Notes under the pieces: generated by a model | What the model saw: only the letters and a program-made list of their open reading frames with translations | Database searches by the model: none | What the model was told of the DNA's origin: nothing | Position numbers and translations under genes: made by a program | Part shown: positions 206 to 5,804 of the stretch, in pieces | Numbering within the stretch: the stretch's first letter is position 1 | Layout: every line of letters begins with the position of its first letter | Virus record (IMG/VR): IMGVR_UViG_2529292882_000006 | Span: 1 to 29,442 of that record | DNA: 29,442 nt | Direction: 5' to 3' (one strand) | From: a virus | Taxonomy: Duplodnaviria > Heunggongvirae > Uroviricota > Caudoviricetes

Positions 206-235
206 AAAAACCCCGGATTGATGGTCCGGGGTTTT
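206..235. terminator. Bidirectional rho-independent terminator
   Basis: 7-bp stem CCCCGGA (211-217) / TCCGGGG (225-231) with a 7-nt loop, A-run on the 5' side and T-run on the 3' side. It lies between the convergent + peptide and the minus-strand operon. Confidence 0.6.
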
Positions 236-256
236 GCTATTCATGGTGAATTTTTA

Positions 257-574
257 TTAACAGATTGACTGAATTCCGTTTTTCTCAACCACAGAAAGCA
301 AGCGAAGGGCAGGGCCACCAGGACGCTTTATTCCCCTTTCCCAGTCTGAAATGAGGTTTTTACTGACATTAAGATATCTGGCGGAAACAGGTTGAGACAG
401 ATGCTCGCGCTCGCGAAGTGCCCGGATTCTTTCTGGCGACATTGTTGGCGCTGGTTGCAGACAGGGTTCATCAAACTCTCTCATAGTTTGTTTTGTTACT
501 GCGCCAATATCCTGAAGTGACTCCATCATTTCATGTACGGATGCAAGCGCATCACTGCGGTAATTTTTACTCAT
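257..574 (-). CDS. HTH-domain protein, XRE/HigA2-YiaG-like putative antitoxin or regulator (105 aa from ATG 574; the ORF is open to TTG 610)
   Basis: C-terminal helix-turn-helix segment (...SQPVSARYLNVSKNLISDWERGIKRPGGPALRLL...). Lies immediately downstream of parE on the same strand. Start codon is ambiguous, with no clear SD for either candidate. Confidence 0.55.
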   Translation of the reverse strand: MSKNYRSDALASVHEMMESLQDIGAVTKQTMREFDEPCLQPAPTMSPERIRALREREHLSQPVSARYLNVSKNLISDWERGIKRPGGPALRLLSVVEKNGIQSIC

Positions 575-628
575 TGCTTTACATCTGTAAGAGACGGGCG
601 ATTGACGCAAATTAGTGGAAGCAGGAAC

Positions 629-928
629 TTATAAAAAGTCGGTTTCATAGTTTTGTCCGCCATAGTAGACGCCAGCGATAAAGACTTTGTTGCCATCAAC
701 AGCAAAAGCAATGATCGTTCTGTGGCGGAAGTGAGTTACCCGCATTCCCTGGCGAATATCATCGCGTTTATTGCCCCGATGTGGGAATGTAGAAAACCCA
801 TCAAGATAATCAAGAAGCGCATTGGCATAATTGTCAGCAATGACGCTTCCTGCTTTCTCCGTTATATATCTGTGCAGGTTTATTATCTGCTGTTCGGCCT
901 CGGGGGTAATGATGACTTCATATGTCAT
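629..928 (-). CDS. parE: ParE/RelE-fold type II toxin
   Basis: 99 aa, with a ParE-like N-terminus (MTYEVIITPEAEQQIINLHRYI...) and C-terminal ...RVTHFRHRTIIAFAVDGNKVFIAGVYYGG. Separated by 5 nt from the upstream RHH antitoxin gene. Confidence 0.7.
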   Translation of the reverse strand: MTYEVIITPEAEQQIINLHRYITEKAGSVIADNYANALLDYLDGFSTFPHRGNKRDDIRQGMRVTHFRHRTIIAFAVDGNKVFIAGVYYGGQNYETDFL

Positions 929-933
929 GCAGA

Positions 934-1191
934 TTACTTCCCGGATCGAATCGCGGCGCGAACCTGTGAAATGGAGCGTCCGTTGTTTGGATTTTCGCGG
1001 ATAGAATCAAGAGAGGGGGCGGCTGAATGCGTTAACCACGCTTCGATTGCTTTATCGCGCTCATTCAGTGCGCGAAGCCCTTCACGAATGACCTCGCTTT
1101 CTGAAGCATAGGCACCGGAAGCCACACGGGCGCGCACCATGTCAGCCATCTCGTTAGTTAATGTAATGCTGAATTGTTGGGTTGTACGCAT
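934..1191 (-). CDS. parD: ParD-family (RHH, COG3609-like) antitoxin
   Basis: ATG at 1191 with GAGG 6 nt upstream. Product MRTTQQFSITLTNEMADMVRARVASGAYASESEVIREGLRAL... matches the ParD signature. The ORF track's longer form begins at a TTG at 1254. Confidence 0.7.
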   Translation of the reverse strand: MRTTQQFSITLTNEMADMVRARVASGAYASESEVIREGLRALNERDKAIEAWLTHSAAPSLDSIRENPNNGRSISQVRAAIRSGK

Positions 1192-1260
1192 GGTAAACCT
1201 CACGGAGTAGGATAGAACACTATTTGATGATAGCACGCTGCCTGTTGACGACAACAGAAA
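1192..1260 (-). promoter_or_regulatory. Putative parDE promoter/operator
   Basis: On the minus strand, TTGTCG (-35-like), a 16-nt spacer, then TATCAT (-10-like). Inverted repeat CTGTTG-N4-CAACAG at 1242-1257 overlaps the -35, a typical arrangement for RHH autoregulation. Confidence 0.3.
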
Positions 1261-4434: not shown

Positions 4435-5481
4435 ATGGCTAATACTGTAAAAATATCCAGTTGTGAGTTAATCAACGCTGATTGCCTGGAATTTATCCAG
4501 ACCTTACCGGAAAACTCTGTCGATCTGATAGTCACAGACCCGCCATACTTTAAAGTGAAACCCGAAGGCTGGGATAACCAGTGGAAGGGCGACGATGATT
4601 ACCTGAAATGGCTGGATCAGTGTCTGGCGCAATTCTGGCGGGTACTGAAACCTGCCGGAAGTCTCTACCTGTTCTGTGGTCATCGCCTGGCATCTGATAT
4701 CGAAATCATGATGCGTCAGCGCTTTAATGTGCTGAATCACATTATCTGGGCGAAGCCGTCCGGGCGCTGGAACGGGTGTAACAAGGAAAGCCTGCGGGCG
4801 TATTTCCCGGCAACAGAACGCATTCTGTTTGCTGAACATTATCAGGGACCATATCAGCCCAAAAATGACGGCTATGCGGCAAAGGGGCGCGAGCTAAAAC
4901 AGCACGTCATGGCCCCGCTGATTTCTTACTTTCGTGATGCGCGTGAATCACTGGGGATAACGTCGAAACAGATAGCGGAAGCCACCGGAAAGAAAAACAT
5001 GGCTTCGCACTGGTTTGGTATCAGTCAGTGGCAGTTACCGAACGAGGGTGATTACAACAAATTGCAGGCGTTGTTTGCGCGTGTTGCGGCAGAAAAACAT
5101 CAGCGCGGGGAACTGGAAAAGCCACACCACCAGCTGGTCAGCACATACAGTGAACTGAACCGTCAATACGCCAGCCTGCTGGAAGAGTACAAATCTTTGC
5201 GACGTTATTTTTCCGTATCAGCTGCCGTTCCGTATACGGATGTCTGGACGCACAGGCCCGTGCAGTATTATCCGGGCAAACATCCCTGTGAAAAACCAGC
5301 CGATATGTTGCGCCAGATAATTACTGCCAGCAGCCGTCCGGGTGATTTGGTTGCTGATTTTTTCATGGGCTCAGGCTCAACAATAAAAGCGGCACTTTCA
5401 CTGGGACGCCGTGCGATTGGCGTGGAACTGGAAGAAGAGAGATTTAATCAGACTGTAACTGAAATAAAAAATAATCGTTAA
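4435..5481 (+). CDS. Orphan DNA methyltransferase, N6-adenine/N4-cytosine class (DPPY motif)
   Basis: 348 aa with DPPY (motif IV) near the N-terminus and FFMGSGST (motif I) near the C-terminus, i.e. beta-class permutation. No restriction endonuclease gene adjacent. Confidence 0.85.
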   Translation: MANTVKISSCELINADCLEFIQTLPENSVDLIVTDPPYFKVKPEGWDNQWKGDDDYLKWLDQCLAQFWRVLKPAGSLYLFCGHRLASDIEIMMRQRFNVLNHIIWAKPSGRWNGCNKESLRAYFPATERILFAEHYQGPYQPKNDGYAAKGRELKQHVMAPLISYFRDARESLGITSKQIAEATGKKNMASHWFGISQWQLPNEGDYNKLQALFARVAAEKHQRGELEKPHHQLVSTYSELNRQYASLLEEYKSLRRYFSVSAAVPYTDVWTHRPVQYYPGKHPCEKPADMLRQIITASSRPGDLVADFFMGSGSTIKAALSLGRRAIGVELEEERFNQTVTEIKNNR

Positions 5482-5650: not shown

Positions 5651-5726
<76 letters not shown>

Positions 5727-5729
5727 TAT

Positions 5730-5804
<75 letters not shown>

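Follow-up and report, generated by a model that had tools for sequence, protein, structure and literature searches.

The known systems closest to the locus studied here, a block of three genes in the nin region of IMG/VR virus record IMGVR_UViG_2529292882_000006, are the ParDE toxin-antitoxin modules, the HigB2-HigA2 module of Vibrio cholerae and the paaR2-paaA2-parE2 operon of an Escherichia coli prophage. The stretch analysed, hereafter the window, covers all 29,442 nucleotides (nt) of that record (Duplodnaviria; Heunggongvirae; Uroviricota; Caudoviricetes), and the block encodes a ParD-type antitoxin, a ParE-type toxin and a protein with a helix-turn-helix (HTH) at its C-terminus. The V. 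cholerae antitoxin (VcHigA2) is modular, with a disordered toxin-neutralising segment in its first ~36 residues and a C-terminal HTH, and its gene follows that of the toxin (PMC5416850). In E. coli O157:H7 prophage CP-933P the order is regulator-antitoxin-toxin (paaR2-paaA2-parE2); PaaA2 is devoid of a DNA-binding domain, which makes a separate regulator necessary, and this regulator, PaaR2, belongs to the immunity region as an analogue of CI (PMC8630535). Orphan antitoxins are reported from E. coli lineages and from phages (PMC10790755, PMC11825919).

The parD-parE part of the block is like canonical ParDE modules (Caulobacter ParDE1, 3KXE; Mesorhizobium ParDE, 5CEG/6X0A; the E. coli prophage parDE, phage ArgO145/RefSeq) in its antitoxin-toxin order and 5-nt gap, in the N-terminal ribbon-helix-helix of ParD (TIGR02606) and in the ParE fold (template modelling score, TM, 0.78-0.83), but the window has a third gene and a terminator where the two-gene E. 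coli loci have ~200 nt of non-coding DNA. The HTH protein has the length (105 amino acids, aa) and layout of HigA2. Unlike HigB2-HigA2 pairs, however, the window lacks the toxin gene, the start/stop overlap, the Shine-Dalgarno sequence and the native promoter/operator. With paaR2-paaA2-parE2 the locus shares a ParE-fold toxin (fold match to ParE2 at TM ~0.78), a lambdoid prophage and an HTH protein in the operon. It differs in that its ParD is predicted to bind DNA itself and in that its HTH gene is last, of HigA2 type and in the nin region; the sequence-only reading of this DNA had already noted the different gene order. PaaR2 was not among the PDB sequence matches of the HTH protein, nor was ParE2 among those of ParE. 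The features that define a tripartite paaR-paaA-parE system are, at the sequence level, not found: ParD has a ribbon-helix-helix, and the HTH gene is last and not co-conserved. Known orphan antitoxins and anti-addiction modules are similar in that an intact antitoxin stands without its toxin on a mobile element beside other toxin-antitoxin genes, but the antitoxin gene in the window differs from them in being spliced behind another complete module, on whose promoter it would depend.

We consider it probable that the locus is a two-gene parDE module followed by an orphan higA2 gene of another module, a chimera that arose by recombination in a prophage cargo slot. A new three-part system, the possibility raised by the sequence-only reading, is not supported by the sequences compared here, which point to a mosaic of two known modules. 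This mosaic is rare and recent.

parD and parE match two-gene ParDE modules

In each sequence-level feature examined, parD-parE is a member of the ParDE family, with the ParE signature and predicted fold and a ribbon-helix-helix ParD encoded directly upstream. ParD matched Pfam ParD_antitoxin PF03693 (1.6e-7, 32.1 bits; cut-off 21), TIGR02606 (1.5e-14, 53.8 bits; cut-off 46.2) and phrog_6494 (1.7e-56), and its PDB sequence relatives are ParD antitoxins, for example Caulobacter ParD1 (3kxe_C). ParE matched Pfam ParE_toxin PF05016 over the whole profile (6.1e-9, 36.8 bits; cut-off 23) as well as phrog_5232 (5e-41). Its AlphaFold model (27 homologues; mean predicted local distance difference test score 91.2) was searched against PDB folds, and the top 22 matches were all ParE toxins of ParDE or PaaA2-ParE2 complexes (TM 0.78-0.83); RelE/YoeB-type mRNases rank after them, with HigB2 33rd (TM 0.59). 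The profile and the fold search both recover the ParE/RelE fold that the sequence-only reading had assigned to this product, and the family profiles that it had proposed as a check (ParD, ParE and HTH) all scored above cut-off.

Positions 150-1400 of the window were searched against 5,426 complete E. coli genomes and matched 3,052 of them, none with 80% coverage. In the best records (STEC711, phage ArgO145) parD-parE is followed by the non-coding DNA mentioned above, and in others (JE86) by a lipoprotein-like gene (117 aa) and hokD. ParD is 100% identical to that of the two-gene loci (L001-L003), and there is therefore no sign that it needs help. ParE is 93-94% identical to theirs, and the 6-7 residues that differ cluster in the last 20 residues, beside the junction with the third gene. 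Among 78 IMG/VR loci with ParE relatives (89-98% identity), ParD was present in all 78 and the HTH gene in none, and 68 were plain two-gene loci. Nine loci of ParE homologues at 73%, 62% and 71% identity (Yersinia, Enterobacter and Salmonella proteins by NCBI naming) likewise have ParD in 9/9 and the HTH gene in 0/9, with unrelated DNA following. With the HTH gene missing behind parE in the viral loci, in the distant loci and in the complete genomes (0/5,426 contain the parE-HTH junction), the proposal of a single three-component system is not supported. Three loci of a Yersinia enterocolitica protein by NCBI naming (L149-L151, 2425-2826) carry a co-directional 133-aa gene with no Pfam match 137 nt past parE; this is further cargo behind parE, unrelated to the HTH gene.

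The promoter and the inverted repeat CTGTTG-N4-CAACAG, which overlaps the -35 as the sequence-only reading had described, are identical in two-gene E. coli parDE loci, and the repeat is therefore part of parDE and not of the third gene. By itself a 6+6 inverted repeat lies within chance expectation. Its core GTCGTCAA, however, does not vary among parDE relatives, even where ParE identity is as low as 62%, and together with GCTA of the -10 region it is unchanged in those of E. coli, Yersinia, Enterobacter and Salmonella; the outer arm bases vary in distant relatives. As judged from these sequences, parDE is most likely an autonomous, self-sufficient module with its own promoter and a candidate operator. 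The parD leader, AATAGTGTTC(T/A)ATCC (window 1192-1226 and homologous leaders), is nearly invariant across parDE relatives of four genera, though non-coding, and may be a regulatory or operator element.

The third gene matches HigA2-type antitoxins

Automated annotation labels the third gene merely as 'helix-turn-helix protein'. By sequence, its product is a HigA2-type antitoxin, with the expected length of ~105 aa and a C-terminal Xre HTH. Pfam HTH_31 and HTH_3 were above cut-off, phrog_2104 matched at 2e-38, and the best PDB match was V. cholerae HigA-2 (E 1.5e-6; residues 44-99 against 38-93).

The HTH segment alone matches 242 complete E. coli genomes, ten of them at 98.4% nt identity. One copy at this identity (protein 98%), that of E. 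coli PK8241, occupies the same slot of its prophage, upstream of DUF968-RusA-Q, and overlaps by 8 nt the end of a gene for a 123-aa toxin (PF06296, E 4e-47). Among solved structures this toxin is closest to VcHigB-2, so that the third gene has its native setting in a canonical higB2-higA2-type pair (PF06296-toxin/Xre-antitoxin; WP_001217946.1, the toxin, and WP_000042399.1). The sequence-only reading had guessed at a HigA2-type protein, and both the PDB match and the PF06296 partner agree with this. ParE and the HigB2-type toxin are unrelated except for a common superfamily fold, and BLASTP detects no similarity between them. PADLOC matched no defence-system model to ParD, ParE or the HigB2-type toxin, and the third gene drew generic HTH matches only.

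HigA2-type antitoxins were expected to follow a toxin of their own, and a HigB2-type gene or its remnant does accompany them in 43/44 viral and 75/80 representative loci. Of the 44 IMG/VR loci that hold relatives of the HTH gene at 58-98% identity, 41 have a HigB2-type gene, whether intact or frameshifted; two had a deletion remnant only, one met a contig end, and none had ParE. A search of species representatives returned more than 560 matching stretches at least, and 80 loci across Proteobacteria (L158-L237; 66-81% identity) were examined. A PF06296 toxin lay directly upstream in 74, a fragment in 1, no toxin in 4 and a contig end in 1, and neither ParD nor ParE was found in any of the 80. 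The HigA2-type protein is unusually conserved for an antitoxin, since these levels of identity to the E. coli prophage protein were seen in loci labelled Beta-, Gamma-, Alpha- and Deltaproteobacteria, plus one locus each with the label Viridilinea (Chloroflexota) and Gaiellales.

Loss of the toxin with the antitoxin kept recurs in the HigA2-type family. Of 46 loci, 17 (L005, L034-L036, L039, L041, L043, L044, L048, L053, L056-L060, L063 and L065) keep a full-length antitoxin, whereas their HigB2-type toxin gene has been frameshifted or deleted, in no fewer than five ways; many of these are possibly copies of one prophage, so that independent events are fewer than 17. In E. coli SCU-104 (L006, 2670-2975) a 101-aa 'HigA family addiction module antitoxin' lies 10 nt past the HigA2-type gene with no adjoining HigB, and prophages of this type have a HigB2-type toxin, a HigA2-type antitoxin and the further orphan antitoxin in tandem, as stacked parts in the same slot.

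A palindrome upstream of the toxin in PK8241, and of the toxin remnant in L065, is the putative native higB2-higA2 operator. It has no match in the 29-kb window with up to 3 mismatches, and a HigB2-type gene is absent from the whole window. With no cognate toxin upstream and no promoter of its own with a palindromic operator, the third gene is, by sequence, an orphan component rather than part of a HigB2-HigA2 module. A possible HigA2 operator in the parDE promoter was also considered and rejected: the 8-nt coincidence AACACTAT near the parD leader occurs in two-gene loci too, and the full palindrome is unmatched in the window.

Junction between the two cassettes

The window is homologous to the PK8241 cassette from the terminator as far as the HTH gene's ATG, where this homology ends, and homology to parDE cassettes begins at the parE stop codon. 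The PK8241-type cassette has the terminator hairpin too, whereas two-gene parDE loci lack it, a distribution by which the hairpin came in together with higA2. The 54-nt spacer between the two regions of homology had no match in complete E. coli genomes or in ~220 fetched loci; a 63-nt junction pattern was absent from 185,579 species-representative genomes, and the junction was also absent from IMG/VR. Derivation of the spacer from the 3' untranslated stretch of two-gene parDE was rejected, the weak resemblance being not significant (244/2000 shuffles reach the score). A MAFFT alignment showed a faint similarity of the spacer to the 3' end of the HigB2-type gene, which we do not use as evidence.

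The junction has cost the third gene its ribosome-binding site. Its best duplex between Shine-Dalgarno and anti-Shine-Dalgarno has -0.5 kcal/mol, compared with -10.8 kcal/mol in the native context, where the GGAGG lost here is present; the values for parD and parE are -6.4 and -5.0 kcal/mol. In the interval between parE and the HTH gene, a promoter/terminator scan called no promoter-like or terminator-like site.

The chimera is rare, young and nearly invariant, and it is recurrent in E. coli draft assemblies. NCBI names as E. coli all the contigs that carry the exact alleles, 61 for ParE and 10 for HTH. Every fetched locus of the exact HTH allele has the arrangement parD-parE-54 nt-HTH, and in the ten places shown for the exact ParE allele the HTH gene follows in nine and is truncated in the tenth. 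In 19 loci the identity of the chimeric block, measured over 1,101 nt, is at least 99%; the truncated locus, in which 891 nt are left, reaches 98.8%. Literature searches did not find the chimera described.

The sequence-only reading had asked whether the HTH gene always accompanies this parDE, and it does so only within the near-identical chimera (at least 98.8%). The same reading held that a third gene with its own promoter, occurring independently of parDE in relatives, would tell against a three-component operon. Independence was observed in both directions, and a promoter of its own was not found. Because the third gene is independent of parDE in relatives, the three-component proposal is unsupported on its own terms.

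State of the orphan gene

Six chimeric loci keep the ancestral HTH protein, identical to that of PK8241. The allele in the window carries L37P and F64S, and its precomputed Pfam match drops from unmarked to 'weak'. Position 64 is F in all relatives examined except the three most distant, where it is L, and it aligns with F58 of VcHigA2; we take it to be the site, conserved as hydrophobic in Xre HTH domains, that precedes the Ala of their first HTH helix. Serine at this position is probably destabilising. A second allele (L022) has G87D, at a glycine invariant in the relatives. In a further locus (L018, 4514 onward) about 53 codons of the HTH gene are left, joined to unrelated DNA toward IstB-like and DnaA-like replication genes, from which it follows that the orphan can go while parDE stays. 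F64S, G87D and the truncation are hints of relaxed constraint and not proof of it. The substitutions of conserved residues, like the lost Shine-Dalgarno sequence, speak against the orphan being strongly selected for.

Proposed origin and alternative explanations

We propose that two type II toxin-antitoxin cassettes sharing one lambdoid prophage slot, just upstream of DUF968-RusA-Q, recombined, and that the second cassette would have contributed only its antitoxin gene and terminator, its toxin gene, promoter/operator and ribosome-binding site being gone. ParD is expected to act as in two-gene parDE, its C-terminal part neutralising ParE and its ribbon-helix-helix domain repressing the operon. 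Family membership suggests that ParE would inhibit growth by gyrase poisoning and that ParD would counter it by neutralisation and by repression of the promoter. The higA2 gene would be carried on the parDE transcript by read-through, because the sole terminator follows higA2, and it is probably poorly translated, since it is without a Shine-Dalgarno sequence. In the window it has neither a cognate toxin nor its putative native operator, and the window allele may show first signs of decay. On account of the missing toxin, operator and Shine-Dalgarno sequence and of these signs of decay, higA2 would be an orphan riding on parDE, presumably without function, and not a third component of a ParE system.

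Several observations weigh against so simple an account. The chimera is no one-off, given the 61 contigs with the exact ParE allele and the 10 with the exact HTH allele, and it occurs on several prophage backbones, whose Q genes are of two or three kinds and whose upstream genes differ. The HTH open reading frame (ORF) is intact in 19 of the 20 chimeric loci fetched, which also fits mild positive selection for its retention, and HTH alleles differ at 5-7 sites, too few for a meaningful ratio of non-synonymous to synonymous substitution rates (dN/dS). The stretch upstream of the HTH ATG is A-rich and weakly structured, which leaves room for translation without a Shine-Dalgarno sequence.

These points bear most on the possibility that the orphan is functional, which we think has a real but clearly smaller chance of being correct. 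On this account parDE displaced higB2 and its promoter while higA2 was kept and expressed from the parDE promoter; only recombinants expressing higA2 survived the long-lived HigB2, and the orphan continues to shield the lysogen from the HigB2-type toxins that related prophages, or incoming phages using the same slot, bring with them. Both cassettes do use the same slot in related prophages, the left junction retains the whole antitoxin gene and the terminator at 98.4% identity, and the ORF is intact on several backbones, with the ancestral protein unchanged in six loci. Post-segregational killing would be evaded by any recombinant in which higB2 was lost and higA2 retained, and the loss of the toxin with the antitoxin kept, in 17/46 loci, shows that this state recurs. 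HigB2-type modules are also common in E. coli prophages, judging from the 242 complete genomes that match the HTH segment, and for another family there is a record of phages whose orphan antitoxins neutralise toxins (PMC11825919). The protective role is attractive because the cassettes compete for the slot, because loss of higB2 with retention of higA2 evades killing, and because toxin decay is frequent. Against it stand the loss of the Shine-Dalgarno sequence, the F64S and G87D changes at conserved positions and one truncation; moreover, the copies of the HTH gene are near-identical, and intactness may therefore reflect only their youth. Inertness is one possibility for the orphan; the other is that it still neutralises the HigB2-type toxins that competing prophages carry. 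If the latter is true, the lysogen joins one addiction module with immunity to a rival one, and the locus is a trace of cassette competition for one site; an orphan active against HigB2-type toxins would be a convenient natural example of such competition.

A genuine three-component ParE system, in which the HTH protein would serve parDE as its second antitoxin or as its dedicated regulator, is very improbable. The three genes are tightly linked in one orientation, with one promoter-like site and one terminator, the window-type ParE allele nearly always precedes the HTH gene (9/10, the tenth gene being truncated), and the differences of ParE from two-gene alleles cluster in its C-terminal 20 residues. 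These differences, however, adjoin the junction, as a recombination tract would leave them. The partner censuses are all negative, ParD is identical to two-gene ParD and has its own DNA-binding domain, and the promoter and inverted repeat are the same in two-gene loci. The HTH protein is 98% identical to the partner of an unrelated toxin, and its gene has no Shine-Dalgarno sequence. Nor is there co-occurrence across diverged relatives, all 20 chimeric loci fetched being at least 98.8% identical.

Hardly any weight can be given to a free-standing transcription factor recruited for other prophage or host genes independently of a toxin: the Xre-type HTH domain would suit this role, and an M. tuberculosis antitoxin that shares the name HigA2, though perhaps not the ancestry, is reported to have several regulatory targets (PMC11205783), but the 29-kb window has no match to the native operator-like palindrome, F64S alters a position of the HTH that is conserved as hydrophobic, and the gene has neither a Shine-Dalgarno sequence nor a conserved new context.

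The chimera of parDE with an orphan higA2, which we prefer, puts a simple and well-documented case in the place of a candidate 'new tripartite ParE system'. It suggests that toxin-antitoxin cassettes sharing a prophage slot recombine where genes meet, with orphan antitoxins as the leftovers. Labelling the third gene as a HigA2-type orphan matters for censuses of toxin-antitoxin systems, which would otherwise be miscounted, and for work on cross-talk or anti-addiction among the modules of prophages.

Layout of the block and its prophage setting

The block (window 207-1254) reads on the minus strand in the order promoter-like site, parD, parE, spacer, HTH gene and terminator-like hairpin (Table 1). 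The three co-directional ORFs lie on the minus strand at the coordinates first assigned to them. Of the spacings then given, 5 nt and 54 nt stand; the alternative of 18 nt rests on a TTG start at 610 that no homologue uses, and we rejected this start since all relatives begin at MSKNY. A mechanical TTG ORF that extends parD to 1254 is likewise not the gene, the ATG at 1191, preceded by GAGG, being preferred. A bidirectional terminator had been described at the end of the block: the hairpin is there and was called on the minus strand, and bidirectionality is plausible from the symmetry of its A-run and T-run, but no plus-strand call was made.

Table 1. Features of the parD-parE-higA2 block, in window coordinates
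Feature	Position	Strand	Basis or remark
Promoter-like site of the parDE operon, TTGTCG-16-TATCAT, TG before -10	1254..1227	minus	sigma-70-like; promoter scan
Inverted repeat CTGTTG-ACGA-CAACAG	1242-1257		overlaps -35; candidate operator for the ParD ribbon-helix-helix
parD, ParD-family antitoxin, 85 aa, ribbon-helix-helix at residues ~6-51	934-1191	minus	PF03693, TIGR02606
parE, ParE-family toxin, 99 aa, 5 nt past parD	629-928	minus	PF05016, model fold
Junction spacer from parE to the HTH gene, 54 nt	575-628	minus	no Shine-Dalgarno sequence for the downstream gene
Orphan higA2-type antitoxin gene, 105 aa; N-terminal toxin-binding part and C-terminal Xre-type HTH	257-574	minus	
Terminator-like hairpin closing the block (strong)	235..207		called on minus strand only

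The flanking phage genes are on the plus strand, both in the window and in annotated relatives. The block was described as cargo antisense to its neighbours, and this description holds. The slot lies between a small membrane-protein gene (ending at 201) and a block comprising a 90-aa ORF, DUF968, RusA and Q, and its alternative minus-strand contents in related prophages are parDE, parDE with the 117-aa lipoprotein-like gene and hokD, a higB2-higA2-type pair, such a pair with an orphan HigA-family antitoxin, and the chimera of the window. Downstream of the Q antiterminator gene, a 348-aa ORF (4435-5481) is followed in the window by tRNA-Thr (tgt; 5651-5726) and tRNA-Gly (tcc; 5730-5804), at a position where relatives have a DNA methyltransferase (PF01555) instead.

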